The notes: generated by a model not told the origin, from the sequence alone. Shown: positions 7,136 through 64,000, numbered from the stretch's first letter. The stretch: 64,000 nt of DNA from Sulfurimonas sp. RIFOXYD12_FULL_33_39 (GCF_001829785.1 NZ_MICF01000010.1), one strand, 5' to 3'. Numbers and translations are program-made.

Positions 7136-7954
7136 ATGCAATATCTACTATTTTTTTTACTGCCCTTTAGTTTTGCATTTGGCGAAACGGTGTTAAAGTG
7201 TGTCGGTTCTACGACCATACAGCCTATTATTGAAAAAGTTGCCAAAAAGTATAAACAAGAGAGCGGTATTACGCTAAATATATCCGGCGGCGGAAGTCAA
7301 CATGCAGTTGACTATCTCATATCAAATAAAATAGAAATTGGCATGGTAAGCAGAGATTTAACTAACCAAGAAAAAAATGCTCTCTCCTATATAACAATTG
7401 GCTACGACACTTTGGCTTTTTTAGTCAACAGCGACAATCCACTCCAAAATATATCAAAAAAAGATTTGATAGAGATATATACGGCAGAGGTTAAAAACTG
7501 GAAAAAATTTAACACTAAAGATGAAAAAATTCATCTACTCTCAAAAAGAATAGACCGTGGAACACTCAATATCTTTGAACACTATACTGGGCTTTTTCAT
7601 CCACAAAATCCAAAAAACAGCGATAAATCAAAGATGATAGACACCTCGGCGTGGGAGGCCGGAGCAAATAACGACATGATGGTTTGGGTAGCCGGAATTC
7701 CAAATAGTATCGGCTATATATCTTTAGGATCTGTTAATGCTATAAAAAAACATGGTCTGCCTATAAAAATTTTGGAACTTGATGGGGTAAAACCATCAAG
7801 AGAGAATATCCAAAATCAAAGTTATCCTATTAAAAGAGAGCTGAATTTAGTTTTTTTAAAAAGCAATAAACAAGCAGCAAAGTTCGCTGAATGGATGCTT
7901 GAAGAGTATGCTCAAAATAGTGTTGAAGAAAATCTTTTTTTAAGAGCAAAATAG
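7136..7954 (+). CDS. PstS-like periplasmic substrate-binding protein
   Basis: 272 aa with a signal peptide and PBP-like motifs (GSTTIQP, GGGSQHAV, VSRDL). Confidence 0.7.
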   Translation: MQYLLFFLLPFSFAFGETVLKCVGSTTIQPIIEKVAKKYKQESGITLNISGGGSQHAVDYLISNKIEIGMVSRDLTNQEKNALSYITIGYDTLAFLVNSDNPLQNISKKDLIEIYTAEVKNWKKFNTKDEKIHLLSKRIDRGTLNIFEHYTGLFHPQNPKNSDKSKMIDTSAWEAGANNDMMVWVAGIPNSIGYISLGSVNAIKKHGLPIKILELDGVKPSRENIQNQSYPIKRELNLVFLKSNKQAAKFAEWMLEEYAQNSVEENLFLRAK

Positions 7955-10900
7955 TGAAAACATCTTTAAGCAAAAAAATTGTAATCTCAAATCTATTTGT
8001 ATTGGTTGTCTCTTTTACAGCTCTCTTTGTTGCCTACAATTTTGAAAATAAGGTAAGCAAAGATATTTTACTGCATAGAAATCAGGTAAATAAATTTGAC
8101 AAAGAGGTAATCCTAGTCGCATCATATCTTTATAGAAGTGCTCACATGAATGATGATAAATATTTAGCAGCAGCGGCAATCTCTTCAAAAAAAGCTATAT
8201 ATACACTTGATTATTTAATTCATCACGAATTTCAAACCCAAGAGTTAAAAGCAGTTTATATAGATTTTTTTAAAAATGCCGTCATTTCGACATCACTTTC
8301 ACTTGAAAAAAGATTAAATGATGCACAGGAGATTGATACGATATCGTTTGAAAAATATACATTACTTCAAAAAATGATAGCAGAGTTGCTGGCTAATTTA
8401 GATGATAGTGAAAATGAATTGGAAAAAGAGGTTATATTAATTCTTTTAGTTTTTAGCTTGATTTTTATTTTTCTTATATTTGGAAATATCCTATATATTA
8501 TAAAATCCTATAGACATATTCAAGAAACTGAATCAAAGATAGCGCTAAAAGAGCATGAATCCGTTACACAGCGTGCAACCATGATAGATGCCATAGGAGA
8601 CGGTGTTTACGGTGTTGACAAAAATGGAATGTGTACTTTTGTAAATCAAAGCGCCGTTAATCTACTCGGGTTTACAAAAGAGGAAATTCTAAGCACCCAT
8701 CAACATGATCTTTTTCATCACCATAAACTAGACAACAGTGTTTACTCGCATGAAGAGTGTCCCATCTATTTAACCATAAAAGATAGGCAAATCAAAGAGC
8801 TTGAAGAAAATTTTATAAAAAAAGACGGCACTTTTTTTGCCGTCAATCTAACGGTAGCTCCGACAATCGATGGGGGAGCCATTGTCGTATTTAGAGATAT
8901 TACAGAAAAGAAAATAATTTTACACGCTCTTGAGCAAGAGAGAGAACTTTTTTCAAGCGGTCCTGTAATGACTTTAGAATGGGAAGCATCACAAAACTGG
9001 CCTATTAAATATATTTCTTCAAACTGCTTAGACATTCTTGGTTATTCAAAAGATGAGATGCAAAGTGAGAAATTTTTATATGCAGACCTTATCCATCCCG
9101 AGGACATAGATAGAATTTCTAAAGAAGTTACCTACAACACACAAAATAATATAAACAACTTCGAGCAATCGTACCGCTTAAGATTAATAAACGGCGACTA
9201 TAGATGGTTCTATGATTTTACACATTTTGTAAGAGACGAAAAAAATAGTCTGTCCTCTATAAGAGGCTATATGTTTGATCAAACAGGACTCAAAGAGGCA
9301 GAACTTGCCATAAAAGAGGCTAAAGAAAAGGCAGAACTTGCCAATAAAGCCAAAAGTCAATTTTTGGCAAATATGAGTCATGAGATAAGAACGCCCATGA
9401 ACGCCATAATAGGCTTGAGCGAGTTGCTATTTGATACAAAACTTGACGATAGACAAAAAAATCTTCTCCTTAAAGTTAACAGCTCATCAAAAATACTTTT
9501 AGGAACCATAAACGATGTACTTGATTACTCTAAAATAGAAGCCGGAAAACTTGAGCTAGAGCATAAAAATTTTAGATTAGAAGATGTTATGGAACAACTT
9601 AAATTTATGTTTTTAGAGAGTGCTATAAAAAAATCTCTTAGTACTCATTGTGAAATAAAAGATGATGTACCTATTCTAGTTGTAGGGGATGAACTTAGAA
9701 TTACACAGGTTCTCTCCAATCTTATAAGCAATGCAATCAAATTTACTCATGAGGGAGAAGTATCGCTTGATATAAAACTCAAAGAAAAACTTGATGACAA
9801 AAGAGCTGTCATCTCCTTTTGCGTAAGTGATACGGGAATCGGCATCAATGAAGAACAGCTCAAAAAACTTTTTACTCCTTTCACGCAAGCAGATACATCT
9901 ACTACTCGAAAATACGGTGGAACAGGGCTTGGACTAACCATATCTAAAAAGATTATAGAAACCATGCATGGCGAATTAAGCGCTAAGAGTCAAGAGGGTG
10001 CAGGAAGCACATTTAGCTTTGACTTAGAATTTGAAGTAGCATTTTGGGAGAAGCTTGATTTTGATACAATTACACAAAAAGAGATAAAAAAACTTCCAAA
10101 TTTCGGTGGTATTAAAGCACTGCTTGTTGAAGACAATCTTATAAATCAAGAAGTGGCATCTATGATGCTAAAGCGTGTAGCAATAGAGGTTGACATAGCA
10201 AATAACGGGCAAGAAGCCGTTGAGAAATATTTTGAAAATCCTTCTTGTTATGACTTGATTCTCATGGATTTGCAAATGCCTGTCATGAGCGGTTATAAAG
10301 CGGCAAAGCTCATTAGAGAGCATGACAAAAAGATACCTATCATAGCACTTACGGCGGCAGCTATGATAGAAGATAAACAAAAAGCAACGGACGCAGGCAT
10401 GAATGACCATTTAAGCAAACCAATAGATATGAGTAAACTTTACAAGACGATTGCAAAATTTTGCAAAGTTGATTTTGCAATGCAAGGAATTGCACAAATA
10501 CCAAGAAACAGAGCTGAAATTCTTGATATAGAATATTTGGAAAAAAATTTCAGCTCAGAAGAGTTAATAAATAAACTCCTAAAAAAGTTCTTACAAGAGA
10601 TTAGAAGTGAATTTAAAGATGTAGCACTTCTTCTATCAAAAGAAGACGGCAGAGCTCCATCTCTTATTCATACACTTAAAGGTTTAAGCGGTAACTTAAG
10701 AGCAAATCTGCTCTATGAAATCTGCAAAAATATAGATACAAAATATAAAAAAGGACAAAAAATAACAAAAGGTGACATGGAACAATTAAACGTTGCCTTG
10801 CAGAGTACTATAGAGAGAATTCAAGAAATTCTTTTGAACAAGCAGAGCGATGCCTTATTTGAAAAACTACCTTATGAGGAGACAAAAAAACTCTTTTATG

Positions 10901-11073
10901 ACATCAAACAAAGAATTTCAAAATCAAATATGATAGAATCCAAAAAAATAAATTCTCTTTTGAAAAATTTGAGCACACTAGTGAATGCAAGTGAATTGAC
11001 AAAGTGGGAAAAAGAGATAGAAGCATTTGAATATGATAAAGCATTGGAGATTATGAGTAGATGGAAATTCTAA
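7954..11073 (+). CDS. hybrid sensor histidine kinase (TM-PAS-PAS-HisKA-HATPase-REC-HPt)
   Basis: 1039 aa with the H-box SHEIRTPMNAI, the G-box GGTGLGLTISK, a receiver domain (LLVEDNLINQ...LMDLQMP...K) and an HPt motif (HTLKGLSGNL). Confidence 0.9.
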   Translation: MKTSLSKKIVISNLFVLVVSFTALFVAYNFENKVSKDILLHRNQVNKFDKEVILVASYLYRSAHMNDDKYLAAAAISSKKAIYTLDYLIHHEFQTQELKAVYIDFFKNAVISTSLSLEKRLNDAQEIDTISFEKYTLLQKMIAELLANLDDSENELEKEVILILLVFSLIFIFLIFGNILYIIKSYRHIQETESKIALKEHESVTQRATMIDAIGDGVYGVDKNGMCTFVNQSAVNLLGFTKEEILSTHQHDLFHHHKLDNSVYSHEECPIYLTIKDRQIKELEENFIKKDGTFFAVNLTVAPTIDGGAIVVFRDITEKKIILHALEQERELFSSGPVMTLEWEASQNWPIKYISSNCLDILGYSKDEMQSEKFLYADLIHPEDIDRISKEVTYNTQNNINNFEQSYRLRLINGDYRWFYDFTHFVRDEKNSLSSIRGYMFDQTGLKEAELAIKEAKEKAELANKAKSQFLANMSHEIRTPMNAIIGLSELLFDTKLDDRQKNLLLKVNSSSKILLGTINDVLDYSKIEAGKLELEHKNFRLEDVMEQLKFMFLESAIKKSLSTHCEIKDDVPILVVGDELRITQVLSNLISNAIKFTHEGEVSLDIKLKEKLDDKRAVISFCVSDTGIGINEEQLKKLFTPFTQADTSTTRKYGGTGLGLTISKKIIETMHGELSAKSQEGAGSTFSFDLEFEVAFWEKLDFDTITQKEIKKLPNFGGIKALLVEDNLINQEVASMMLKRVAIEVDIANNGQEAVEKYFENPSCYDLILMDLQMPVMSGYKAAKLIREHDKKIPIIALTAAAMIEDKQKATDAGMNDHLSKPIDMSKLYKTIAKFCKVDFAMQGIAQIPRNRAEILDIEYLEKNFSSEELINKLLKKFLQEIRSEFKDVALLLSKEDGRAPSLIHTLKGLSGNLRANLLYEICKNIDTKYKKGQKITKGDMEQLNVALQSTIERIQEILLNKQSDALFEKLPYEETKKLFYDIKQRISKSNMIESKKINSLLKNLSTLVNASELTKWEKEIEAFEYDKALEIMSRWKF

Positions 11074-11975
11074 AAAGCAAAAGAGCAAGTGTCTTAATCG
11101 TAGATGATATGATTGCCAACATAGAGTTATTATCTAACCTGCTAAAAGATGAATATGATATAAAAATAGCAAAAAATGCCAAAAAAACACTTGAAATATG
11201 TCAAGGATATGAAAAACCGGATCTTATTCTTCTTGATGTTATTATGCCAGATATGGATGGATATGAAGTTTGTAAAATTCTTAAAAGTAATATGGCGACA
11301 CAAGATATTCCTATTATTTTTGTAACAAGCAATGATTCAGAGAGAGACGAAGAGTATGGGCTTAATCTTGGAGCAGTCGATTACATAAAAAAACCTTTTA
11401 ATCCGTCTGTTGTAAAAATAAGAGTAAAAAATCATATAAGCTTGAAACTAAAAAGCAACATGCTTGAGGAGCTCTCCATGTGTGATGCACTTACACATAT
11501 ACCAAATAGAAGATACTTCAATGAAAAATTTGAAATCAAATATAGAGAGTCCATCAGAGATAAAATGTCATTTGCTCTCATGATGATAGATATAGACTTC
11601 TTCAAACTCTATAACGACAAGTATGGGCATGGAAAGGGAGACAGCGCTCTTACTAAAGTAGCCCTAACACTGCAAAAAAACCTTAAAAGACCATTCGATA
11701 TGGTCGCTAGGTATGGCGGAGAAGAGTTTGTAATCATCTTAAAAAATATAGATAAAGATGGTCTTAAAAAAGTTACACAATCTCTTATTGACTCAGTTCA
11801 AAAACTAAAAATTCCACATGAATACTCAAGCGTGAGTGATTATTTATCTATAAGTATCGGTCTCTCTTTCAAAGATATTGAAGAAAACAAACCAAAAAAT
11901 CAACTTCTAAAAGAGGCGGATGATATGCTATATGAAGCAAAAAAAGCAGGAAAAAACAGATATGTCTTGCGTTAA
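11061..11975 (+). CDS. response regulator-diguanylate cyclase (REC-GGDEF)
   Basis: 304 aa with a receiver domain (VLIVDDM...LLDVIMPDMDG), an active GGEEF motif and an RxxD I-site (RPFD) five residues upstream. Overlaps the kinase gene by 13 nt. Confidence 0.9.
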   Translation: MEILKSKRASVLIVDDMIANIELLSNLLKDEYDIKIAKNAKKTLEICQGYEKPDLILLDVIMPDMDGYEVCKILKSNMATQDIPIIFVTSNDSERDEEYGLNLGAVDYIKKPFNPSVVKIRVKNHISLKLKSNMLEELSMCDALTHIPNRRYFNEKFEIKYRESIRDKMSFALMMIDIDFFKLYNDKYGHGKGDSALTKVALTLQKNLKRPFDMVARYGGEEFVIILKNIDKDGLKKVTQSLIDSVQKLKIPHEYSSVSDYLSISIGLSFKDIEENKPKNQLLKEADDMLYEAKKAGKNRYVLR

Positions 11976-11978
11976 AAC

Positions 11979-11998
11979 ATCTCTGCTTAAGAGATTTT
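11979..11998 (+). terminator. weak rho-independent terminator candidate
   Basis: ATCTCT / AGAGAT stem with a 5-nt loop followed by TTT, 4 nt after the stop codon. Confidence 0.3.
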
Positions 11999-12039
11999 CG
12001 CTAAAATAGCACTACTATTTTCAACAAAGAGCCTAAAAT

Positions 12040-13143
12040 TTGTCATTAAACTTAAAAACATATACCGAACATTTTACAAACCCGCTCTATTTGGAAAGCG
12101 GACGTATTTTAGAACCGTATGATATAACTTACGAGACTTACGGCGAGCTTAACGATGACAAAAGCAATGTTATTGTTATCTGTCATGCACTTACCGGTTC
12201 TCATCATTGTGCGGGAACTTATGAAAATGACAAAAAACCAGGCTGGTGGGACAACCTTATCGGCAGCGGCAAAGCAGTTGATACCGACAAATATTTTGTA
12301 ATCTGCACCAATGTTCTTGGCAGCTGTTTTGGCTCAACAGGACCTATGAGTCCGCAACATCCGCATCATAACCCTTACCGTTACAAATTTCCGGTAATTA
12401 CTATAAAAGATATGGTAAAAGCCCAAAGAATCCTTTTTGACAGGCTCAATATTCATAACGTACATGCTATTATCGGCGGCTCTATGGGCGGTATGCAGGC
12501 ACTTGCCTTTGCAATTGGTTATCCTAACTTTGCATCAAAAATCATCTCTCTTGCAACAACACATGCAACCCAACCATGGGCTATCGCTTTTAATAAAATT
12601 GCAGGCGAAGCAATACTAAAAGACCCAGATTTTAAGCAGGGATACTATGAGATTGAAGATATTAAAAAAAACGGTCTCTCAGGCATGGCGGTAGGCAGAA
12701 TGGCAGGACATATCAGTTTTCTCTCACAAGAGTCTATGAAAAATAAGTTTGGCAGAGAGTACAAAAGTACCGACGGACTTTATGAACTATTTGGCAAATT
12801 TCAAGTTGAACTATTTTTAGAGTATAACGGTTATAACTTTACAAAATGGTTTGACCCGCTTTCTTATCTCTACATCACAAAAGCAATAAATATTTATGAT
12901 TTATCACGCGGGTTTGACTCATTAAGCGAAGCTTTACAAAAAGTTACTGCAGAGCTTCATCTTATTAGTTTTAGTAACGACCAACTATTTAAGAATTCCG
13001 AGATGAAAGAGATAAGTGACGCACTAACTCAAATTGGCAATAAAAATCATAGCTATGTTGATATACAGAGCGATTACGGACATGATGCATTTTTAGTTGA
13101 AGTGGATAAGTTTGAAAAATATATATCTGAAATTTTAGGTTAA
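12040..13143 (+). CDS. metX: homoserine O-acetyltransferase
   Basis: 367 aa alpha/beta hydrolase with the nucleophile elbow GGSMGGMQAL and the C-terminal YGHDAFL. TTG start. Confidence 0.92.
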   Translation: MSLNLKTYTEHFTNPLYLESGRILEPYDITYETYGELNDDKSNVIVICHALTGSHHCAGTYENDKKPGWWDNLIGSGKAVDTDKYFVICTNVLGSCFGSTGPMSPQHPHHNPYRYKFPVITIKDMVKAQRILFDRLNIHNVHAIIGGSMGGMQALAFAIGYPNFASKIISLATTHATQPWAIAFNKIAGEAILKDPDFKQGYYEIEDIKKNGLSGMAVGRMAGHISFLSQESMKNKFGREYKSTDGLYELFGKFQVELFLEYNGYNFTKWFDPLSYLYITKAINIYDLSRGFDSLSEALQKVTAELHLISFSNDQLFKNSEMKEISDALTQIGNKNHSYVDIQSDYGHDAFLVEVDKFEKYISEILG

Positions 13144-13153
13144 TTGAAGCCTT

Positions 13154-13591
13154 ATGAAACCTTTTATACTTTTATTTGTACTACTCTCTTTTTTATACAG
13201 TGCACAAATTGATGAGTTTGCAAATGGAGTCGGCTACTTAAGAAGCTACAATATGGCGCTTGAGAGTGCAAAAAAAGAACAAAAACTTATTATGCTTCTT
13301 GTTGTTTCCGACTACTGTCCTTGGTGTAAAAAGTTTGAGAGAAAAGTTTTAGAAAACCCTTTAGTTAAAGAGGCGGTAAATAGAGATTTTATAGCAGTAG
13401 CAATTGATAAAAATAGCGACAAAGGGAACTACCCACAAGAGTTTGCCGCTGTTATGATACCTGCCGTATATTTTATTGACCCAAAAACACAAAAGAGCAT
13501 ATATGAAGTTGTTGCTTATAGAAAAAAAGATGAATATCTCTTAAATCTAAAAGAAGCTCTTGAAATTTTTAAACAAAATGACAAACTATGA
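13154..13591 (+). CDS. secreted thioredoxin-fold protein
   Basis: 145 aa with a signal peptide and a CPWC redox motif (DYCPWCKKF). Confidence 0.7.
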   Translation: MKPFILLFVLLSFLYSAQIDEFANGVGYLRSYNMALESAKKEQKLIMLLVVSDYCPWCKKFERKVLENPLVKEAVNRDFIAVAIDKNSDKGNYPQEFAAVMIPAVYFIDPKTQKSIYEVVAYRKKDEYLLNLKEALEIFKQNDKL

Positions 13592-14025
13592 GAACCGTAC
13601 TATTTCTTTTTCTATTTGTAAATACGCTGTTTTCAGAATCATTTTACACACTTGATGGTGTAAAAAATCTAAATATATATTTAGCAAACAAAACAACGTT
13701 TTTAGGAAATGAAGAGAAGAGTGAAATAGAAAAAATTATTAAAACAAAACTTCAAGAGAGTGGCTTTATATTTGGAGAAGTTGACCCGATAACATTGGTA
13801 GTAAAAATCAGCTCAAAAGAAGTACATGATACTCAAGTCGTAAATATAGAACTAAGACTCTCTGAAGAGGTAACTACTCATCGCAAAGGCAATATTAAAA
13901 CCTATGCAGTTACCTATTTTAAAAGTGAACTCATAGAGACAAGCAGCCCTTACGAAGATACGATTGAGATAATTAATGCTATGCTTGATAAATTTATAAA
14001 TGCTCATAAAGACGATAACCAATAA
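13588..14025 (+). CDS. hypothetical secreted protein
   Basis: 145 aa with an N-terminal signal peptide. ATGA overlap with the upstream gene. Confidence 0.5.
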   Translation: MRTVLFLFLFVNTLFSESFYTLDGVKNLNIYLANKTTFLGNEEKSEIEKIIKTKLQESGFIFGEVDPITLVVKISSKEVHDTQVVNIELRLSEEVTTHRKGNIKTYAVTYFKSELIETSSPYEDTIEIINAMLDKFINAHKDDNQ

Positions 14026-14039
14026 TAAAAGGAGACAAA

Positions 14040-14231
14040 ATGGCTAAAGAGAGTGAAGATTTTGAATCAAAACTTGAGAGTGCAAAAAAAATTTTAGAGG
14101 CGCTTATGAACCCTGAAATAACTCTCTCAGATAGCGTAAAAGCTTATGAAAAAGGTATGGGCGAATTGGCAAAAGCGCAAAAGATACTTGAAGAAGCACA
14201 AGTTAAAATTACCGAAATAAAAGGTAAATAG
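14040..14231 (+). CDS. xseB: exodeoxyribonuclease VII small subunit
   Basis: 63-aa helical protein with the typical XseB N-terminus (FESKLESAKKILEAL...L). Confidence 0.8.
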   Translation: MAKESEDFESKLESAKKILEALMNPEITLSDSVKAYEKGMGELAKAQKILEEAQVKITEIKGK

Positions 14232-15028
14232 TGCGCGCCGCAGTACTTCAACTAAGTGCGCAAGGGATGAGTTCAACAAAACTCTATAACTATATCCGTA
14301 TTGCAAATAAGCAAGGTGTTAAAGTTTTACTTCTTGGCGAATATATATTAAATCCTTTTTTTAAAGAGCTTCAAACTCTCTCCGTAAGTATGATAAAAGA
14401 ACAAGCCCAGCATCAGATAAAGGTGTTAAAAGAGTTGGCATCTAGCTACAAAATAACCATAATAGCACCTTTGGTCATAGTAAAAAAAGGCAAGATATAT
14501 AAAACTATTGCCAAATTTGCTCCTAATTCGTCCTCATATTATCAACAACAGCTCCTTATCAACTATCCTCATTGGAATGAAGAAAAGTTTTTTGCAAATG
14601 AACAAAAAAAAATTGAGCTGCCTCTAATATTTAAAATTGACGGATTTAAATTTGCGGTAATGAGCGGATTTGAAATTCATTTTGACGAAATGTTTAATAA
14701 TCTAAGCTCAAAAAATATCGACTGTATTTTACTTCCTAGCGTATCTACTTTTGACTCTTACGAGAGATGGAAAGCTCTTGTACTCTCACGTGCATTTACA
14801 CACAACTGCTATATATTAAGAGCTAATAGAATCGGTGAATATGCAGATGCAAATAAAAACTGGAGTTTTTACGGCGACTCGCTTTTGGCTTCTCCAAACG
14901 GCGAACTTTTAGAACATCTCGGCAATAAAGAAGAACTTATGATTGTAGATATGAATCATAGTGAAATTATCCGTGCCAGAAAGTCTTGGGGATTTAAAGA
15001 TACAATAAGTAAAAGAGAACTATTTTAG
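14231..15028 (+). CDS. carbon-nitrogen hydrolase (nitrilase superfamily) family protein, divergent
   Basis: 265 aa with nitrilase-like layout (LLLGEY..., ...RANRIG...GDS...P.G). GTG start. See the finding on the catalytic residues. Confidence 0.65.
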   Translation: MRAAVLQLSAQGMSSTKLYNYIRIANKQGVKVLLLGEYILNPFFKELQTLSVSMIKEQAQHQIKVLKELASSYKITIIAPLVIVKKGKIYKTIAKFAPNSSSYYQQQLLINYPHWNEEKFFANEQKKIELPLIFKIDGFKFAVMSGFEIHFDEMFNNLSSKNIDCILLPSVSTFDSYERWKALVLSRAFTHNCYILRANRIGEYADANKNWSFYGDSLLASPNGELLEHLGNKEELMIVDMNHSEIIRARKSWGFKDTISKRELF

Positions 15029-43214: not shown

Positions 43215-46200
43215 TATGTCATTTGAAGTTACCCCCCCCTTACTAGCATAGCGTTTGTTTTGGACAATGTCCAAGACTATCAAAACATAGTATCCGGCAT
43301 ACCGACGGATACAACTGTTTTTATCATAGATTCAAAACAAAATGCTCTTGAGCAAATGGCGTCCATAAGCTCAAACTTCTCGGATCTCTCATCCATACAT
43401 ATATTTAGTCACGCAAGTCAAGCAAATCTTGACTTTGGGAATATAAAACTAAATGAAGAAACCATAAACGACTACTCTGCTTTACTCTCAGAAATAGGCT
43501 CTTCACTTACAAATGAGGGCGACATCCTCCTCTATGGGTGTAATGTCGCGCAGGGAAGTGCAGGAACGGAATTTATCGGGAAACTCGCCCTTGCAACCAG
43601 TGCGGACATCGCAGCCTCGGACGATGTGAGCGGTGCGGCTGATAAAGGCGGGGATTGGGTACTAGAAGTTAATCACGGTGTGGTTGATAATCACGCACTT
43701 TCCGTTGATACCTATGATGGCATATTGACAATAGATACAGGAACAATCCCAGATTCACAGAATGGTAACTATGCGCCTACGATTATTCGTGGGGCTGATG
43801 ATAATCTTTATATGGCCTTAGCCGATAGTGAGCAACTGATTCAATTTTTTAAATGGAACGGTAGTGCTTGGTCTCAGATAACAACTCTTACACCTGCTAT
43901 AATCGGTGATGTATCCATGCGAGCAGATGTGCCGCTGGGTGTGGATTCGACCGGTAAGCTTTATACCGTTGTGAGTTCTTATGAGATGATTGGAGATGGT
44001 ATTTGTGGTCATGTAAAATCTCAAATCGCTACTTTTGATGGTAGTAACTGGTCTTTTACCGAGATCGAAACCTTGACTCCTTCATCACCCTATGGGGCAA
44101 ATTATACGTTAAGCAATGGAAGTATCGTTATTGATAGTAACGACCATGTTCAGATAGCTTTTCATAGATGGGCTGACTATCGTTACGATGCCATAAGTGA
44201 GGAGAAAAATTTTTATGCGACAAATATTTCCGGAAGTTTTGTTATCACAAGTGCCGATGGTTCTAACGATCGAGCGGCAGCGATAACAACAGTATATGGT
44301 TTCGCCGGTGCCGGAGCAGGAGAGACCTATGTCGTGTATAATGTTATAGACACTCCTCAGGTCATATTTCAGAAATTTGTAAACGGTATCGCTTCGGGTT
44401 CGCCAATAACGACTACTATTGATGCAACTGGTTACTTTTGTGGAGCGGCTATCGATGCAGCCGGTAATTTGCACGTTCTAGCGGTGGATGGCACCAATTA
44501 TGAAATGAGTTTTTGGTCTTATAGCGGCGGGGTGTGGAACAGTGAACCTATAGTGCCAGGCACGGCAGGTCATACCTATTCGCCTGCTTTGACTGGTCAG
44601 GGGGCTAATGCTACTCCCTACGCTATGATAAGTGATGCCAGTGGCAATATGTATGTGTTCCTCGCGGAATACGATGCCGACTGGAATAGTGTGGGAAATA
44701 AAATACTAACCTATACTGGAAGCGAATGGATAGACGGTAAAACGGATATTAGTGCTTTAAATGCTATTGCCGATAAGTGGTCATTTGTTGCTGATAGTTC
44801 ATCCCATCTTATGATCATCAACGCTGCATATGAAGAAAATGCAACCTATCAGTTTGGTCCTGCGGTTGATTTTCAGGTGTTAGCCGGTCCTATCAGTACA
44901 GATATTAACGGAACCTTGTTAGCGGATAATACTTTTGATAGACCAAAAACATATGCGGATGATAATGGGGATGGTTATTATGAGTCTACATATTATGCGG
45001 CGAATCCTGGTGATATAACAGGTCTATACGGGGCTCAGTTCCAGTACTTTACTAGGAACGTTACCCCGAGCGCAGACGGTACGTTTACCTTTAACGTGAC
45101 GGCTGCAGAGTTTTCTGATACTTTTTTGTTGCTCTATGACGGTTCATTCGACCCTGCGAATCCGCTAACCAATCTGATTTTGGCACAAGACGATACTGCT
45201 GCTGATTTATGGTCAAATTTTAGTTATGGTTTAACTAATGGGCACACCTATGTATTGGTATTAACGAGTTTTAGTACGACAGCTACAGGTACACTTACTG
45301 TTAACGTATCTGGACCAAGTGCCGTTACCGTAGCCGCAAATGAATATTCATCAGATGTTCCGGTAGTCTCCGACACCACCGGTCCAACTGTCTCTTCCGT
45401 CGCTATCACCTCCGCCACAGGTGCGCAAAACAGCACACTCAATGCGGGCGATGTGGTAACCGCTACGCTCACCATGAACGAAGCAACCACTGTTACAGGG
45501 ACACCGCAACTCGCACTTAATATCGGTGGTACAACCGTACAAGCTAACTATACCGGTGGTACGGGTACAACGGCATTGACCTTTACCTACACCGTTTTGG
45601 CAGCTCAAACCGATGCAAACGGGATTAGCTTTGATGCTGATGGTCTATCCTTAAACGGCGGTACACTAAAAGATGCCGCAGGAAATGATGCGACATTAAC
45701 CCATGTGTCGGTCACGGATAATGGTAGCTACAAAGTAGATACCACCGCACCGACCGCGACGATCACGATGGTGGACACCGCTCTCAAAGCGGGAGATACG
45801 TCGCTGGTGACGATCACGTTTAGCGAAGCGGTTACCGGATTCAGCAACGCCGATCTGACCATTACCAACGGAGAACTCACTGATGTAGCCTCAGTGGATG
45901 GCGGAGTGACATGGACGGCGACATTTACCCCGACCAACGATTTGTACGATGCGAGCAACATTATCACCCTCACTAAAACGGGAGTGACCGACCTGGCAGG
46001 CAATGCGGGAGTCGGAACCACCGATTCGGCGAACTACGCCATCGATACGGAACTGCCGACTGTGACGATCACGATGGCGGACACCGCCCTCAAAGCGGGA
46101 GATACATCACTGGTGACGTTCACATTTGCTGAAGCGGTTACCGGATTTACAAACGATGATTTGACTATCGCCAAAGGAACCCTCAGTGACGTCACTTCGA

Positions 46201-49200
46201 GCGATGGCGGCATAACATGGACGGCGACGTTTACCCCGAGCGTCACTACGACCGATGCAACGAACGTTATTATTCTCGACCGAGCGGGGGTGAGCGACGC
46301 GGCCGGCAATGCAGGGAGCGGAAGCATTGAATCACCCAACTATACGATCGATACGGTACTACCGACCGTTGTCTCTATCGTTATGGCTGACACCGCTCTC
46401 AAAGCAGGTGATACCTCACTGGTAACCATCACGTTTAGCGAAGACGTTACCGGATTCAGCAACGCCGATTTGACCCTCGCCAACGGAACGCTCAGCGACG
46501 TATCCTCTAGCAACGGCGGTACGACATGGACGGCGACGTTTACCCCGACAGCGAACATAAGTGATACCGCCAACGTTATTACCCTCAACAACACGGGTGT
46601 GACTGATATAGCGCTCAATGCGGCGGTCGGAACCACCGATTCGGCGAATTACGTCGTCGAAACCAATAGCCCTACCGCAATCACCCTCAGCAATAACACC
46701 GCTTCGACGGCAGGAGGAGCCAATACGGTAGTAGTAGGAAGCCTCTCTTCGACCGATGCGACGACAGGCGACACCTTTACCTATTCTATCGGGGATGATA
46801 GTCCCTGGTTCACCATCAGCGGCTCAGATTTGTGCGTTACTGACCCTGCGGGACTGGGAGTGGGAACCTATACTATTGATACTCTCCGCTCTACCGATGC
46901 GGCAGGAAACATCCATGACGAAGCTAAGACCATCATCATCAGCTCCAACCCGACCGTCACGATCTCCGTCGATGACAGTACTCTAAAATCAGGACAGACC
47001 GCGACAGTGACGTTTACATTTAGCGAAGCACCGACTGGATTTACCGATGGCGATATTACAGTCTCCGGCGGCACACTATCAGCCGTAAGTGCTACAGATG
47101 CTACGCACTATACCGCTACATTTACTCCAACGGTAAATACTGCAAGCTTAAGCGGAAGCATCTCTATTGCTGCCGATACGTTTACAAGTAGCGGTAACAA
47201 TAACATTGTAAGCAATACTCTAAGCATTACGGGAGATACTCTTGCTCCTAGTGTACCGACGGTTACATCTTCAGCAAGTGGTAACGACAACACTCCGACT
47301 GTTGCAGGAACGGCAGAAGCAAATGCAGCGGTAACAGTCGTGATAGCAGGGGCAACATATACAACAACGGCAGATGGTAGTGGTGCTTGGTCTGTTGATA
47401 CCAGCAGTGCAGAACCAGACAGCGGAGCACTAGAGATCAATGCTAATGGAGACAATAGTGTGAGCGTAACAGCAACAGATAGTGCCGGTAATATCAGTTC
47501 TGCCGCTACTCAAACATTAGCGATCGATACTACGGCTCCAACTTTTACATCGGCCGCAACAAATACAAACGGCACAAAAGTAATACTAACATACAGTGAA
47601 GCATTGTACGCTACAACGGCTGCTACAACCGATTTTACAGTCATGATTGGAGAAGTTGCAAATACGGTAACGGCAGTGACAATCAGCGGAAGCACTGTCG
47701 AATTAACATTAACTACGACTATAACAAATGGGCAAACGGTTACCGTCGCTTATATCGCACCTGAATCAAATAGTGCAACAAGCAATAATGCAATACAAGA
47801 TAGCATAGGTAGTGATGCAGTAGATCTGACAAGCACATCCGTTACAAATAATGTTGCTGCTCCTTCAAGTGGTGGCGGCGGTTCATCTACTCCATCTACT
47901 CCATCTACTCCAACGACTCCAACAACTACCATAATAGATGATAGCAATCTTAGCGGAAGCAAAACTACATCCGTTACGACCACCGTTGGCGGCAACACCG
48001 TAGTTACACAGTCAGCGACAGGAACAAGAACATATACGGATGTAAACGGAAATACTAAAACCCAACCGAATGTCACAGTGGAAGCGATTAAAGCTACTTC
48101 TCCTACAAGCACTACTTCAGGAAGCACTACTGCCGTACCGCTTTATTGGGGAGAGAGTTCTAAAACCGAGTGGGCGACAACAGCTTCACTATCATCTGGT
48201 ATAACACTCTCATCCGAAGGTAACCGTGCACCGGTAGCGACACAAACTAAGACAACGGCTATCGATGATCTTATCTACTACATAGATACTACGACCCCTT
48301 CAACTGATAGTGGAAAAACTGGTATGCTAAATGGCGGGGAGACATTTTTAAATACACTAAGTCATATAGATACACTGGTTGTAAATAAAATAACTTTAAC
48401 AAGTGATAGTGCAACTACATCTGCTACGCCGATAACGATTCAAGGAACCGCAAATACGGTACATACCGCAAACGGCGATATTGCACCGATGGAAGCACTT
48501 GTAATTGATGCTCAAACACTGCCTACAAATTCAACACTACAACTCAATAATGTTGAGTTTGCGGTAATAGTAGGTGAAAATCTAACTATCCGTGGCGGTG
48601 AGGGACAAAACAAAATCTTTACGGGCGAAGGTTCTCAAGACATTATGTGTGGTGAAGATGATGATGAACTTCATGCAGGAGCAGGAGATGACAGCGTTGG
48701 TTCTGCAGGCGGAGACGACTTAATCTTTGGAGAGGCTGGAAACGATACCGTATATGGCGGAGAAGGTAATGACCTTCTTCACGGCGGAAGCGGAAATGAT
48801 AAAGCAACTTATGATGGCAATCAAGCAGACTATGTTATTACAAGAGATGAAGGTAAAACGTATGTTGCTTTAAGTTCTAATCCGGATGAAGTAGATACGC
48901 TTATAAATGCTGAAACAATAGAGTTTGCTGATGGAGTTTATGTTGTTGAATCTACAACGACGCAAGAAAAAATCGCAACTCTCTATACACAGATTTTAGA
49001 TCGTCAAGCAGAGATAGACGGATTTCAATACTGGGCATACGATACATTGAGTATGGGACAAATAGCACTTTGCTTTATAACATCTGCAGAGTATAAAGCA
49101 AACAGCGAAGTTGACTTTGACACACTTGATTTAGCCGGAAAGATAGAGACTTTTTATGAAGCCCTCTTAGGCAGAGCGTCGGACACAGAAGGTAAAGCCC

Positions 49201-59642: not shown

Positions 59643-60848
59643 ATGAAAAAACCATATCTGGAATCTATGCCTGATGAGAAAGGCTTTTTTGGAAAGTTTG
59701 GAGGGGCTTTTATCCCACCTCAGCTTGAAGAGCCTTTTAGAGAAATAAACGAAGCTTATGACAAGCTCTCAAAATCGTTCGACTTTATAGATGAACTTAA
59801 AAAAATTAGAAAACATTATCAAGGAAGACCGACACCTATAACTTACTGTAAGAACTTGTCCAACTTTATCGGAGGCGGACAAATTTATCTTAAACGTGAA
59901 GACCTAAACCACACGGGTGCACATAAACTAAACCACTGTATGGCTGAAGGACTTTTAGCAAAACAGTTGGGCAAAAAGAAACTAATAGCAGAAACGGGTG
60001 CAGGTCAGCACGGTGTGGCACTTGCAACAGCCGCGGCATATTTTGGGCTGGAGTGTGAAATCCACATGGGAGAAGTTGATATTGCCAAAGAGCATCCAAA
60101 TGTCGTAAGAATGCAAATACTAGGTGCTAAAGTAGTTCCTGCTACTCACGGACTCAAAACTCTAAAAGAAGCAGTTGACAGCGCATTTGAAGCGTACCTT
60201 GCAGATACGGACAATCAGCTTTTTGCAATAGGCTCGGTAGTAGGTCCGCACCCTTTTCCAAAGATGGTGAGGGATTTTCAAAGCGTAGTGGGCATCGAAG
60301 CTAAAGAGCAGTTTTTAGAGATGACGGGCAAACTTCCTGATATGATAACGGCATGTGTTGGCGGCGGAAGTAACGCTATGGGAATTTTCAGCGCGTTTAT
60401 CGAAGATAGCGTAAAACTTTATGCGGTCGAGCCGGCAGGTAAAGGCTGTGAGCTGGGTGAGCATAGTGCAAGTCTGACTTACGGAAGCGAGGGAGTTATG
60501 CACGGGTTTAACTCTATCATGCTAAAAGACAAAGACGGTAACCCTGCACCTGTTCACTCAATTGGAAGCGGAATTGATTACCCTTCAGTCGGTCCCGAAC
60601 ATGCTTACTTAAACAGTATAGGAAGAACAAATATAGGACTTTGCAGTGATGATGAAGCTGTTGATGCTTTTTACAAACTCTCTCAACATGAAGGAATCAT
60701 CCCTGCCCTTGAATCTGCTCATGCGGTAGCATTTGCCATGAAGTACGCAAAAGAGAATCCAAAAGAGTCCATTTTAGTAAATCTAAGCGGCAGAGGCGAT
60801 AAAGATATAGACTATGTAATTGAGCACTATCCTATACCTAAAAAATAA
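59643..60848 (+). CDS. trpB: tryptophan synthase beta chain-like protein (TrpB2 type)
   Basis: 401 aa with the PLP lysine region [11 protein letters not shown] and the GGGSNAMG loop. It stands alone, without trpA. Confidence 0.9.
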
Positions 60849-60935: not shown

Positions 60936-60990
60936 GTTATCCGCTCGCTACGCGACCGGATAACGGGGGCGCGGGCTTAATACCCGTTAT
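60936..60990 (+). other. GC-rich element with two overlapping, mutually exclusive hairpins
   Basis: gttatccg...cggataac (60936-60964, with an inner tcgc/gcga stem) and ataacggg...cccgttat (60960-60990) share the cggataac segment. Confidence 0.4.
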
Positions 60991-61048: not shown

Positions 61049-62719
61049 ATGATTAATTCAGAATATTATTTATTATTAGAGATAAATACGAATGCAACCC
61101 AAGATGAAATAAAAAAAGCATATCGTAAAAAAGCTCATGAATTACATCCTGATAAAAATAAAGATTTTGATACAACTGAACAATTTCAAAAATTAAATAA
61201 AGCCTATGAGACATTAAGCAATATAAACGTTGATGAAGAAATTAAAAAAACAACTCATGATAGAGGCTATTATCAAGATTTTGGTTTTGGATTCATCATA
61301 AAACACTATGATAAGAGAGAAGTTGATATTGAAAATTACAAAATAAATATTGAAAATTTATCTTGTAATTGTTCCGACTGGAACTATAATAGAAAACACT
61401 ATAATAAAAATGATATTAGAAGATTATGCCGACACATCATTGCATCATTTGATGTTTTAGAAGTTTATCCAAAATATGATTTTGAATATGAAGATTATTG
61501 TGTAAAAGATATAAAAGTACCTGATAGTTTAAAAATATTTAAAGATAAAATAATTTCATGCAGAGATAGCCGAGATGGTGTTGATTTATATTGGTTTAAT
61601 GAACTTATCATTTTAAATTCTTTTATTATTTATATTTCAAAACATAAAAAAGGTGTACACATTTTTTCAAAAAAATATCATAAATTGATGTTCATTAGAT
61701 TAGATTGTGAAGATATATCTAGAATTAATATTGATATTGAATCTAATTTTTATTCAAGCTATACAAGTTATTATGGGGAGTACAATAATAATCTTGCAAT
61801 AATTCATAAAAATAAATCATCTAAATATTTTTTTAATGATGAACTAAAAACTTTTTTTGAAGATAAATATTATGAATGCACCGATTTTTTGGCATTATTT
61901 GATATGAAAAAATATTGTAGTGAACTTGATGATGAACAATTAAAAATTAATAAGACATGGGAAGACGGTTACTTACTTGCTAACCAATTCGAATATTCTC
62001 TTCCATTTTTCATGAATAAAAATATTACTCATTTATCCAATAATACAATTCTTGGAAGAGCTGTAGAATTGAAAAATGCAGAAAAGAAAACTAATGTATT
62101 TTTATTGTATCAACAATATCAAAAGTATTTAAAATTACAAGATGAAAGTTTAAAACAGTATGGCACCACGCAAGAATTATTAAAATTAAGCAAAACTGAT
62201 ATTGATACGCGTAAATTCAATGCAACCTTAAAAGAAATTAATTTTATAACAAAAGTAAATCATATAAATCGTAACAATTGGATTGTTAAAGGTGCTGGAC
62301 TAGAATTTGGGATGAATTATATTAATAATGCATCACTTATGCACATTAAAATCCCAGATTGGTATAAAATTTCATATTATGATTATGAAACTTTATCATT
62401 GAAATATGAATATAGATATGGTTTGTTAAAAATGACAGATATTTTATGGAAAAAAAGTAAATTTAATGATTTATTAGAAATAATAAAAAAATATTTATTG
62501 ACACCTAAAATAAAAGAAAAAAACATTGAAAGAAGCACAAAAAAAGAAAGAGTAGTAAACTTTGAGCGTGAAGCTTGGCTTAAAGATGTTAAATGTCCAT
62601 TTTGTCAAGGAAAAAATATTCATAAAAAAGATATAAGACAAAGAAAAGGCTATCAAGTACAAAGGTATCAATGTAGAGATTGCGTTAAAATATTTCAAGA
62701 AAAAACAAAAGATGAATAA
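61049..62719 (+). CDS. J-domain protein with SWIM zinc finger and C-terminal IS1/IS1595-like zinc ribbon
   Basis: 556 aa with a J domain and HPD (YRKKAHELHPDKN, aa 33-35), a SWIM CxCxnCxH (C106, C108, C127, H129) and a C-terminal CPFCQG...YQCRDCVKIF. Confidence 0.8.
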   Translation: MINSEYYLLLEINTNATQDEIKKAYRKKAHELHPDKNKDFDTTEQFQKLNKAYETLSNINVDEEIKKTTHDRGYYQDFGFGFIIKHYDKREVDIENYKINIENLSCNCSDWNYNRKHYNKNDIRRLCRHIIASFDVLEVYPKYDFEYEDYCVKDIKVPDSLKIFKDKIISCRDSRDGVDLYWFNELIILNSFIIYISKHKKGVHIFSKKYHKLMFIRLDCEDISRINIDIESNFYSSYTSYYGEYNNNLAIIHKNKSSKYFFNDELKTFFEDKYYECTDFLALFDMKKYCSELDDEQLKINKTWEDGYLLANQFEYSLPFFMNKNITHLSNNTILGRAVELKNAEKKTNVFLLYQQYQKYLKLQDESLKQYGTTQELLKLSKTDIDTRKFNATLKEINFITKVNHINRNNWIVKGAGLEFGMNYINNASLMHIKIPDWYKISYYDYETLSLKYEYRYGLLKMTDILWKKSKFNDLLEIIKKYLLTPKIKEKNIERSTKKERVVNFEREAWLKDVKCPFCQGKNIHKKDIRQRKGYQVQRYQCRDCVKIFQEKTKDE

Positions 62720-63482
62720 ATTAGCAAAAACACATTTAAATAATGCTCTAGAGCAACTTAAAATCAATTCAATATCTACGGATAAATATGCTTGTTTAGA
62801 ACTAAGACAATGTTTAGAAGCATTAACATATCAAAAAATAAAAGCATATAAAGATAGAATTTCTGATTCTATAACCTCACAATGGCGACCTGCACAAGTA
62901 ATGACTATGCTAGAAGAGCTTGAACCTTGTTCGACAATTAATAAAAATATTGATATAAAATTTACAATGGATAATCATGAATTACATAAAAAGATTATTC
63001 AAAATGAGATTACATCAAGTTTTATAAAAAATTGCTATCATAAATTAGGTTCATATTTACATGTTCCCATTAAAGAAATAAACAATAAATCAGACTTACA
63101 TACTTATCTTGTAAAACTTACAGAAGAAATAAAACCATATTTAGATAATGAAGTTTATTCGACTATGGCTAAAGTAAACAAATTTAAATGTAGCGAAAAA
63201 GGATGTAACCAAGAGTTTATAAGAAATGCGGATAGCATAAAAGTTGGAGATATTATTAGCTGTTTTAATCCTAATTGTAAAGCAGAATATATCATAAAAG
63301 AAAAAAAAGAAAATGAATATATGACTAAACTTCATGAAGCAATTATTGAATGTAATTGTGGAAATGAAATGCATGTTGCTAGTTATAAATTGAAAAATGA
63401 TAAATATTTATATACATGTAAAGAATGTCAATCTAAATATGTGATAACAAAAGCCTATAAAATGGAAATAGACAATGAATAG
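62712..63482 (+). CDS. hypothetical protein with two C-terminal zinc-ribbon-like motifs
   Basis: 256 aa with a helical N-terminal half, then CSEKGC...CFNPNC and CNCGNE...CKECQ. 8-nt overlap (ATGAATAA) with the upstream gene. Confidence 0.6.
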   Translation: MNKLAKTHLNNALEQLKINSISTDKYACLELRQCLEALTYQKIKAYKDRISDSITSQWRPAQVMTMLEELEPCSTINKNIDIKFTMDNHELHKKIIQNEITSSFIKNCYHKLGSYLHVPIKEINNKSDLHTYLVKLTEEIKPYLDNEVYSTMAKVNKFKCSEKGCNQEFIRNADSIKVGDIISCFNPNCKAEYIIKEKKENEYMTKLHEAIIECNCGNEMHVASYKLKNDKYLYTCKECQSKYVITKAYKMEIDNE

Positions 63483-64000
63483 AAACCTAACAATAAGAAA
63501 CTCAACAGCAGAATTTTTAATTTTCACTACTACCAGTGGGCAAGATACTATAGAAGTAAGAGTTGAAGATGAAACAGTATGGCTTACTCAAAAACTTATA
63601 GCAAAACTTTTTGATGTACATGTAGCAACCATAAATGAACACCTAAAAAATATATTTAAAACCCATGAATTAGAGGAGAGTTCAGTTATTAGGAAATTCC
63701 TAATAACTGCCAGTGACGGTAAAAACTACAATACAAAACACTACAATTTAGAAGTCATCATTTCACTTGGATATAGAATAAACTCAAACAAAGCCACAGA
63801 ATTTAGAAGATGGGCAACTGAGGTTTTAAAAACATTTGCAACGCGTGGTTATGTACTAGATAATGAAAGATTAAAAAACGGTAGCTATTTAAATCCTCAG
63901 TACTATAAAGATTTAATATTAGAAATAAGAGACATAAGAGAGAGTGAGCGAAACTTTTATCAACAAATAACAGATATATATGCAACTGCTATGGATTATG
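63475..64000 (+). CDS. RhuM-family protein (5' part, runs off the window)
   Basis: An open frame from ATG 63475 to the window end, absent from the track because it has no stop. It translates to MNRNLTIRNSTAEFLIF...IEVRVEDETVWLTQKLIAKLF...ATEFRRWATEVLKTFATRGYVLDNERLK, which is RhuM-like. 8-nt overlap (ATGAATAG) with the upstream gene. Confidence 0.7.
   Translation, partial: MNRNLTIRNSTAEFLIFTTTSGQDTIEVRVEDETVWLTQKLIAKLFDVHVATINEHLKNIFKTHELEESSVIRKFLITASDGKNYNTKHYNLEVIISLGYRINSNKATEFRRWATEVLKTFATRGYVLDNERLKNGSYLNPQYYKDLILEIRDIRESERNFYQQITDIYATAMDY

Follow-up and report, generated by a model that had tools for sequence, protein, structure and literature searches.

The window analyzed here, a 64,000-nucleotide (nt) stretch of Sulfurimonas sp. 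RIFOXYD12_FULL_33_39 DNA (GCF_001829785.1, NZ_MICF01000010.1), ends in a block of three co-oriented genes located downstream of trpB2 and denoted here genes 1, 2 and 3 (Table 1). Gene 1 encodes a protein that combines a J domain, a SWIM-type zinc motif, a novel domain and a zinc ribbon, gene 2 encodes another zinc ribbon protein, and gene 3 encodes a member of the RhuM family. Consecutive genes overlap by 8 nt (ATGAATAA at the gene 1/gene 2 junction and ATGAATAG at the gene 2/gene 3 junction). The original prediction for this region, made from the nucleotides alone, described the three overlapping open reading frames (ORFs) and interpreted them as a single accessory module that couples nucleic acid sensing by zinc fingers to the recruitment of host DnaK, possibly in antiphage defense; the ORF calls and the junction sequences bear out the arrangement, and the interpretation is weighed below. 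Window positions are obtained by adding 51048 to the positions in locus L001, and the sequence past the window edge was taken from contig MICH01000006.1 of assembly GCA_001830805.1. On that contig, the stop codon of the RhuM gene is followed, after 52 nt, by a convergent gene for a UvrD-like helicase and then by a ferredoxin gene and further chromosomal genes, so that the operon, for which a continuation past the window edge had been considered possible, ends with the RhuM gene.

The segment between trpB2 and gene 1 links this block to integrons. The 83 nt that begin 8 nt past the trpB2 stop codon are 90% identical (E = 4e-24) to positions 7845-7927 of locus L007, where a gene for an integron integrase starts 175-258 nt away, and 89% identical to positions 105-189 of L041. 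In an alignment of six loci (the window, L007, L027, L041, L043 and L021), the homology (...TATATAATGTTnGTTGAATAAAnAGTT) stops at an invariant GTT, which in the window is the presumed crossover site at 60936-60938 that closes the segment. The first gene past the GTT is gene 1 or its relative in the window, L007 and L027, a T5orf172 gene in L041, and another ORF in L043 and L021. The end of homology at the GTT, combined with the differing first genes, is the pattern of an attI crossover point, and, judged by homology and position, this segment is a putative integron attI site. The GC-rich hairpin that had been noted downstream of trpB2 was recovered as two inverted repeats, one of 13 nt (92%; 60936-60948/60952-60964) and one of 8 nt (100%; 60960-60967/60983-60990), with an unexceptional folding energy (z = -1.5). 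It is present in a single copy in the window and has no counterpart at the homologous position in L007 and L022. A ghost cassette devoid of an ORF, or an attC that has been shortened, could account for it; neither the window nor the hairpin region matched any tRNA or Rfam model.

The other integron hallmarks are found in the loci that carry relatives of gene 1, of which about 24 independent ones were compared, many of them on short contigs. In L007 and L043, a divergent gene for a tyrosine recombinase of 320-322 amino acids (aa) precedes a co-oriented gene array; each of these recombinases scores 410 bits with TIGR02249 (cut-off 265). Imperfect palindromes of ~70 nt that resemble attC are located 3' of cassette stop codons in L043, L041, L009, L022 and L007; their layout is (C)GTATAAC ... 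GGAG-AAATAGTTT-loop-AAACTATTT-CTC ... GTTATAC, that is, R''-L''-L'-R', and their consensus fold includes 20 pairs, with compensatory changes in 8 of the 20. A covariance model trained on 8 sites matched two sites outside the training set (L027 4587-4660, 63 bits; L007 10153-10222, 60 bits). Gene-1 relatives are flanked by attC in L041, L043 and L022, and an attC 3' of the cassette (60-85 bits) is found in these three loci as well as in L027. The 5' end of the gene-1 cassette (TTGTGYGYACARAT...) lies behind an attC in L022 and behind attI in L007 and L027.

The gene content of these arrays varies. A T5orf172/MUG113 cassette that is 75-84% identical across L009 (585-1667), L041 (210-1292) and L021 (870-2006) is followed by a gene-2 relative in the first locus, by a gene for a 222-aa protein and a gene-1 relative in the second, and by a gene for a 108-aa protein and a gene-1 relative in the third, so that cassettes have clearly been shuffled behind a shared one. 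Toxin-antitoxin cassettes share arrays with gene-1 relatives in L007, L041, L028, L033 and L046. In L007, a 113-nt direct repeat (92%; 9460-9572 and 11308-11420) lies downstream of the truncated gene-1 relative and again downstream of a ParE cassette, and its right half resembles the right half of attC; this repeat suggests a deletion that took the gene-1 ribbon along with the left half of its attC.

Table 1. Features of the gene 1-3 block and of the segment upstream of it (window coordinates).
Feature	Position	Strand	Description
attI-like integron platform segment	60856..60938	+	Homology to the intI-adjacent segment of L007; contains a TATAAT-containing promoter-like stretch
GC-rich hairpin insert	60936..60990	+	Between the attI GTT and a second GTTATGT
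Gene 1	61049..62719	+	556-aa ORF: J domain, SWIM motif, novel core domain, zinc ribbon
J domain (aa 5-59)	61061..61225	+	PF00226, HPD at aa 33-35
SWIM-type CxCx19CxH zinc motif (aa 106-129)	61364..61435	+	PF04434 sub-threshold, conserved motif
Core domain (aa 349-485)	62093..62503	+	Most conserved part; helices followed by a beta-sheet; matches no known family
C-terminal CxxC-x24-CxxC zinc ribbon (aa 516-545)	62594..62683	+	Conserved in 33 of 45 family members
Gene 2	62712..63482	+	256-aa ORF: helical N-domain and two CxxC...CxxC ribbons
Gene 3	63475..64000 (partial in the window)	+	RhuM family; full protein of 337 aa, ending at window-equivalent 64488

The J domain of gene 1, originally recognized by its HPD motif, is recovered by the PF00226 profile (E = 5e-19; 68.6 bits vs a cut-off of 27.8). 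In the AlphaFold2 model of the protein (mean predicted local distance difference test score, pLDDT, of 77.9), the HPD sits in a loop between helices 18-32 and 43-57, and the top Foldseek matches are solved J domains (probability 1.00), including a DnaK-bound one (5nro_B). By profile and motif, this is a canonical J domain, the signature of Hsp40 co-chaperones, and stimulation of the DnaK ATPase is predicted. The SWIM assignment stands as far as the motif is concerned, the CxCx19CxH spacing (24 residues) being unchanged in 40 of the 45 aligned family members, with nearly invariant D122, C127 and H129 and the family consensus …LTCxCxDW…R..Y…DPRRLCKH[IL]I, but the PF04434 profile score of 19.3 bits falls just under the gathering cut-off of 19.6. 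The SWIM motif is followed by a variable beta-rich/helical middle region, the core domain (~349-485), a long helix and the ribbon.

The core domain is modeled with high confidence (pLDDT 92-98 across aa 360-480) and contains the invariant residues K402, N407, G421, N423, P436, W438 and Y439. No Pfam family recurs in this region over 29 family members, profile searches of the PDB and PHROG yielded no match to it, the Foldseek comparison of the full model with the PDB and BFVD returned matches for the J domain and an NrdR-type ribbon but none for the core, and no catalytic-looking conserved motif is apparent. A KilAC/ANT-like antirepressor domain was considered for aa 349-485 and rejected: a single member of the 29 matched PF03374, at E = 0.14, and no family was hit repeatedly. 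The C-terminal four-cysteine ribbon was found as predicted; its resemblance to the IS1595, InsA, NrdR and Elf1 models remains below threshold throughout (14.8 vs 25.4 bits; NF050000, 17.5 vs 28), and Foldseek pairs it with the NrdR ribbon. Pfam and NCBIfam searches detected no transposase catalytic (DDE) domain in gene 1, in agreement with the first description, and the C-terminal location of the ribbon does not fit IS1/IS1595 transposases.

The family defined by gene 1 is rare and previously unannotated, its known members coming from Campylobacterota and related metagenomes. Apart from matches confined to the J domain, only 13 relatives of gene 1 were recovered when 5.8 billion proteins were searched with a word index. 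Scoring of 1.84 billion representatives with a profile that omits the J domain recovered 41 at E < 1e-30 and 77 at E < 1e-10. No counterpart of the core was detected in 50,697 phage records, IMG/VR or 72,556 plasmids, and the PHROG and BFVD matches of gene 1 extend only over the J domain or the ribbon; the family is thus not located in phage genomes or in the replication or morphogenesis modules of prophages. A J domain with HPD is present in 16 of the 45 family members, about a third. The other N-termini include two degenerate J domains (P0129 and P0140) and one Lcl_C domain (P0135), eight proteins begin with the SWIM motif itself, and the remaining ones carry short N-terminal extensions of unplaced kind. 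The J domain is, accordingly, an accessory module of this family, and DnaK recruitment cannot be the core activity of the family. In L032 (9956-11576), a frameshift-split, J-less gene-1 relative adjoins a P4-type integrase gene, and a separate gene ~1 kb downstream (12491-12958) encodes a 155-aa protein in which an HPD-containing segment resembles a J domain (PF00226, 25.6 bits vs 27.8); the pair may represent the fusion in split form or be coincidental. Decayed relatives include a C-terminal truncation (L007), internal deletions (L022 and P0001) and frameshifts (L020 and L032), in keeping with the frequent silence of such cassettes.

Gene 2 has no significant Pfam match; the helical N-terminal half and the two ribbons initially described are visible in the alignment. 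The word-indexed search found only 4 clusters for this protein, and the AlphaFold2 model is poor (4 sequences, pLDDT 57). HEPN structures among the Foldseek matches of this pLDDT-57 model (E = 1-4) are not significant; there is no Pfam HEPN match, and the conserved stretch KLGSYLH lacks an arginine. Gene-2 relatives occur without gene 1 after a T5orf172 gene (L009-L012) and among toxin-antitoxin genes and an IS110 element (L013); the T5orf172 protein was considered as a domain-swapped version of gene 1, but no relation was found. Distant relatives of gene 2 are encoded on alpha-proteobacterial and Xanthomonas plasmids and on one phage-labeled contig. Two of these (23-30% identity; L048:171-5720 and L049:1-6971) are the last or next-to-last genes of rhizobial plasmid operons, one with genes for an S-adenosylmethionine (SAM) methyltransferase, a histidine kinase-like ATPase and a hypothetical protein, and the other with several genes for hypothetical proteins and one for a large UvrD-like helicase; both may be defense-like operons not yet characterized.

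The RhuM assignment of gene 3 was upheld at full length: PF13310 matches the partial ORF with E = 4.9e-43 and the complete 337-aa protein with E = 7.7e-107 (356.7 bits; profile positions 1-250 of 252). PADLOC assigns gene 3 to PDC-S05 (E = 5.9e-80; PDLC04870, 265.7 bits), with an additional match to PDC-S23, whereas genes 1 and 2 have no match in PADLOC-DB v2 at E <= 1. The statement that no described defense system has this composition thus holds for genes 1 and 2, for which neither PADLOC nor the literature searched offers a system; gene 3 is assigned to an existing single-gene candidate. PDC-S05 is a candidate by genomic association, and no experimental proof of its role in defense was found in the literature searched.

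The block is AT-rich, with a GC content of 0.22-0.26 over genes 1 and 2 compared with ~0.34 for the whole window. The sharp drop to AT-rich DNA reported at the start of the block is real as to the low values, but is sharp mainly in comparison with trpB2 and appears exaggerated because the latter is unusually GC-rich (0.43-0.48 at window positions 59800-60800 vs 0.25-0.33 around it); elsewhere in the window, some stretches are likewise at 0.28-0.30. The segment at 44001-48000 reaches 0.46-0.50, far over the mean, with rRNA, tRNA and Rfam searches all negative there. Scans for promoter and terminator consensus sequences are uninformative in DNA as AT-rich as this. Among the contigs that encode an identical TrpB2, none has an empty site, with trpB2 beside uvrD and no block; all carry the block. 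On the 23 contigs with this exact gene 1, the trio is kept wherever the sequence reaches far enough, but these contigs represent one strain lineage and so are not independent evidence.

Taken together, these findings lead us to conclude that the block is probably the first-position cargo of a degenerate chromosomal integron that kept its attI and lost its integrase, and that its genes are separately mobile rather than parts of a conserved system, with gene 1 contributing a putative binding core to whose target a J domain would tether DnaK. The integron is considered degenerate because the window contains neither intI nor a detectable attC. This context, which was missed in the original prediction, explains the compact, AT-rich, mosaic organization of the block. 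Three separately mobile accessory genes would have been fused into one tightly packed transcription unit, probably transcribed from the promoter-like sequence in the attI region, with translational coupling via the two overlaps. Given that the gene 1 core lacks a catalytic signature, it most likely acts by binding nucleic acid or protein. J domains with an HPD motif dock on DnaK (Hsp70) and trigger ATP hydrolysis, and, given this established role, the J-domain subfamily can be inferred to tether Hsp70 to the target of the core: the J domain would bring host DnaK to the core-bound target and turn on its ATPase there, and DnaK would then remodel, release or inactivate that target. Gene 2 would be an independent zinc ribbon protein with no assigned role, and gene 3 an independent single-gene candidate for defense. 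From the company that the three genes keep, their most likely arena appears to be conflict with phages or other mobile elements.

Several observations weigh against this interpretation. A tblastn search of the window with two IntI proteins detected no integrase gene, and the covariance model, run with filters off, detected no attC in the window or in L001 9700-13800, although a divergent attC could have been missed because the model is narrow (8 sites); no inverted repeat was found after the RhuM gene. With two of the three integron hallmarks lacking in the window, the integron claim relies on the attI homology and on the relatives. A three-gene unit of 3.4 kb without an internal attC is atypical as a cassette, and the decay of the relatives could mean that the family is often non-functional baggage. 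Finally, the ~200 nt that end a J-less gene-1 relative in L027 and the first ~130 nt of gene 2 there are ~93% identical at the DNA level to window positions 62565-62840 and include the same overlap, so genes 1 and 2 have traveled together at least once; a lineage-specific functional pairing of the two, as read from this junction, is possible.

The L027 junction, all the more so because the rest of that gene-1 relative is only 37% identical to gene 1, argues for an alternative that we regard as doubtful, namely, that genes 1 and 2 form a lineage-specific module with RhuM as an unrelated neighbor, in which gene 2 occupies a swappable partner slot as in defense systems that combine a conserved sensor with swappable effectors. 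Other candidates for such a slot are a Fic protein, a DUF2971 protein, the 222-aa protein and the 256-aa protein of L016 and L025. Many gene-1 relatives have a tightly packed neighbor with no attC in between. The 222-aa protein, which matches no family, is encoded 44 nt upstream of a 605/606-aa J-domain subfamily in L041 (1399-3929) and L043 (6288-8821); the two genes are 97% identical across these loci and form one cassette, with an attC only after the J-domain gene, and the 222-aa protein was noted as the sole recurring partner. The 256-aa protein, also without a known family, is encoded upstream of the gene-1 relative in L016 (112-2989) and downstream of it in L025 (164-1918). However, the packed partners differ from locus to locus (Fic in L016, DUF2971 in L015, the 222-aa protein in L041 and L043, an OmpA-like protein in L045), are located either upstream or downstream, have no detectable mutual homology, and are absent in L007 and L022. 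In L027 itself, gene 2 is frameshifted and truncated whereas the gene-1 ORF is intact. Moreover, the loss of an attC easily creates a two-gene cassette, and the samples are small, with the many short contigs mentioned above. In L046 (2590-5255), genes for a TIR_2 protein and a 140-aa protein (Apea-like HEPN, sub-threshold, E = 3.9e-4) are packed together with, and just upstream of, a J-less gene-1 relative, in the vicinity of nucleotidyltransferase and HepT-like genes, which gives this locus a defense-like look. The 222-aa and 140-aa partners were considered as gene-2 homologs, but no relation was found.

A more specific proposal, which we consider unlikely, casts the SWIM/novel domain/ribbon core as the sensor of a new integron-borne family directed against phages or other mobile elements. 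The J-domain subfamily would then load DnaK onto bound phage nucleic acid or protein, either disassembling the target or releasing a packed partner (gene 2, Fic or others). If true, this would be the first immune protein that carries its own J domain.

The reading advanced at the outset, in which genes 1-3 are one dedicated defense or abortive infection system, genes 1 and 2 sensing through their zinc fingers, the J domain recruiting DnaK and RhuM serving as the effector, now seems quite improbable. Its appeal comes from the two overlaps, which imply co-translation, from the persistence of the trio on the 23 contigs of the single lineage, and from a RhuM gene downstream of a J-less gene-1 relative in L015; in addition, the overlap of the Fic-domain gene with the end of the gene-1 relative in L016, by 17 nt, hints at toxin-like proteins as possible partners of gene-1 proteins. 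Yet tblastn found no intact gene 2 in the ~24 other gene-1 loci, the remnant in L027 being the only trace, gene-2 relatives occur where there is no gene 1, and most of the gene 1 family lacks the J domain on which DnaK recruitment would depend. RhuM, for its part, is a single-gene PADLOC candidate on its own and is found near a gene-1 relative in L015 only, ~2.3 kb downstream and with three genes intervening. The latter locus, from an Arcobacteraceae metagenome-assembled genome, is a five-gene islet (9992-14907) inserted between cobalamin biosynthesis genes, which encodes a J-less gene-1 relative, a DUF2971 protein, a Bro-N protein, a fragment resembling a putative YhcG-type nuclease, and RhuM. 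The original prediction had itself named the lack of co-conservation of genes 1 and 2 as grounds for abandoning the idea, and this is what the comparison revealed; the view of the block as accessory, horizontally acquired DNA survives, as do the J domain, the SWIM motif and the zinc ribbons.

It is also distinctly improbable that gene 1 encodes a regulator that binds DNA, or a transposase fragment that has been domesticated, and steers cassette expression or recombination, with the J domain being incidental. The SWIM motif (as in MULE transposases) and the transposase-type ribbon (as in IS1/IS1595) do resemble DNA-binding modules, the helix-helix-beta-sheet core, as modeled, could be a winged-helix-like DNA binder, and the gene comes first after attI in the three loci listed above. 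Against this, there is no significant match to a helix-turn-helix, transposase or regulator family, every ribbon match is sub-threshold, gene-1 relatives also reside inside arrays (L041 and L043) and outside recognizable ones (L015 and L045), and 470-610 aa is large for a cassette regulator. Finally, a prophage or plasmid replication or maintenance module that requires DnaK, comparable to lambda P/O or P1 RepA, is almost certainly not the explanation: phages do encode J-domain proteins, as the PHROG and BFVD matches illustrate, and a Phage_pRha gene lies near the relative in L020, but the family is absent from the phage, plasmid and IMG/VR sets, those matches stop at the J domain or the ribbon, the flanks of the block are chromosomal housekeeping genes (trpB2, the UvrD-like helicase and ferredoxins), and there are no replication, structural or lysis genes nearby.

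Comparison with known systems shows what is familiar and what is new in the block as interpreted here, that is, as integron cargo. A link between Hsp70 co-chaperone machinery and phage defense is known from bNACHT25, a defense protein that needs host DnaJ to sense phages (PMC12169576). Unlike gene 1, bNACHT25 itself lacks a J domain and relies on the DnaJ of the host, and the two are unrelated in sequence and architecture. In the literature searched, bNACHT25 was the only chaperone-defense link found, and no defense system with its own J domain, or with SWIM and J domains together, was encountered. RhuM/PDC-S05 matches gene 3 over its full length, and the likeness applies to gene 3 only. Gene 1 shares the strictly conserved CxCxnCxH with SWIM proteins (PF04434; MuDR/MULE transposases and bacterial SNF2-associated proteins), but scores below the Pfam threshold, lacks a transposase or ATPase domain, and carries the motif at the start of its core rather than after a catalytic domain.

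With respect to J-domain proteins, gene 1 differs from class I DnaJ in lacking the G/F region, the CXXCXGXG zinc centre and the DnaJ C-terminal domains: DnaJ_CXXCXGXG reaches only E = 0.22 on the ribbon, PF01556 is not found, and the NCBIfam DnaJ models score 40-57 bits vs cut-offs of 338-619. The closer parallel is with class III (type C) J-domain proteins, such as CbpA, DjlA, TopJ and the polyomavirus large T antigen, in which an N-terminal HPD J domain is likewise fused to an unrelated targeting region; CbpA and the T antigen pair the J domain with DNA binding. Gene 1 departs from these in that its NCBIfam matches are limited to aa 1-70, the partner region being the new SWIM/ribbon core, and in that the J domain is dispensable in most of its family. 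By these features, the gene 1 product is a class III-like J-domain protein with a new putative client-binding region, and is not DnaJ, CbpA or DjlA. The HPD motif offers a clean single-residue handle on the involvement of host Hsp70.

Integron cassettes without an assigned function often encode phage defense (bioRxiv 10.1101/2024.07.02.601719; PMC12614218), which makes the gene 1 family a reasonable candidate for functional screening. As in integron defense cassettes, the ORFs in the window are compact, co-oriented, AT-rich and located directly behind attI, gene-1 relatives are bounded by attC beside intI in arrays that include toxin-antitoxin cassettes, the gene order is shuffled between genomes, and many copies are decayed. 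The differences are that the window has neither an integrase nor a detectable attC, that its three genes are fused with no internal attC, and that phage resistance is a phenotype of those cassettes whereas the block is known from its sequence. The reports on such cassettes, termed BRiCs, in the phage-defense cassette paper and a 2026 cassette-recovery preprint mention neither J domains nor SWIM nor RhuM. The analysis also carries a caution, in that tight overlaps and identical-looking junctions did not signal a conserved system. What looked like an orphan three-gene system is recast as testable integron cargo in Campylobacterota, a phylum whose integrons, to our knowledge, have been little studied. 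The family newly defined here moves as integron cassettes and repeatedly acquires different N-terminal modules, including a canonical J domain; integron cargo is in itself a known kind, and what is new here is the undescribed protein family that it carries.

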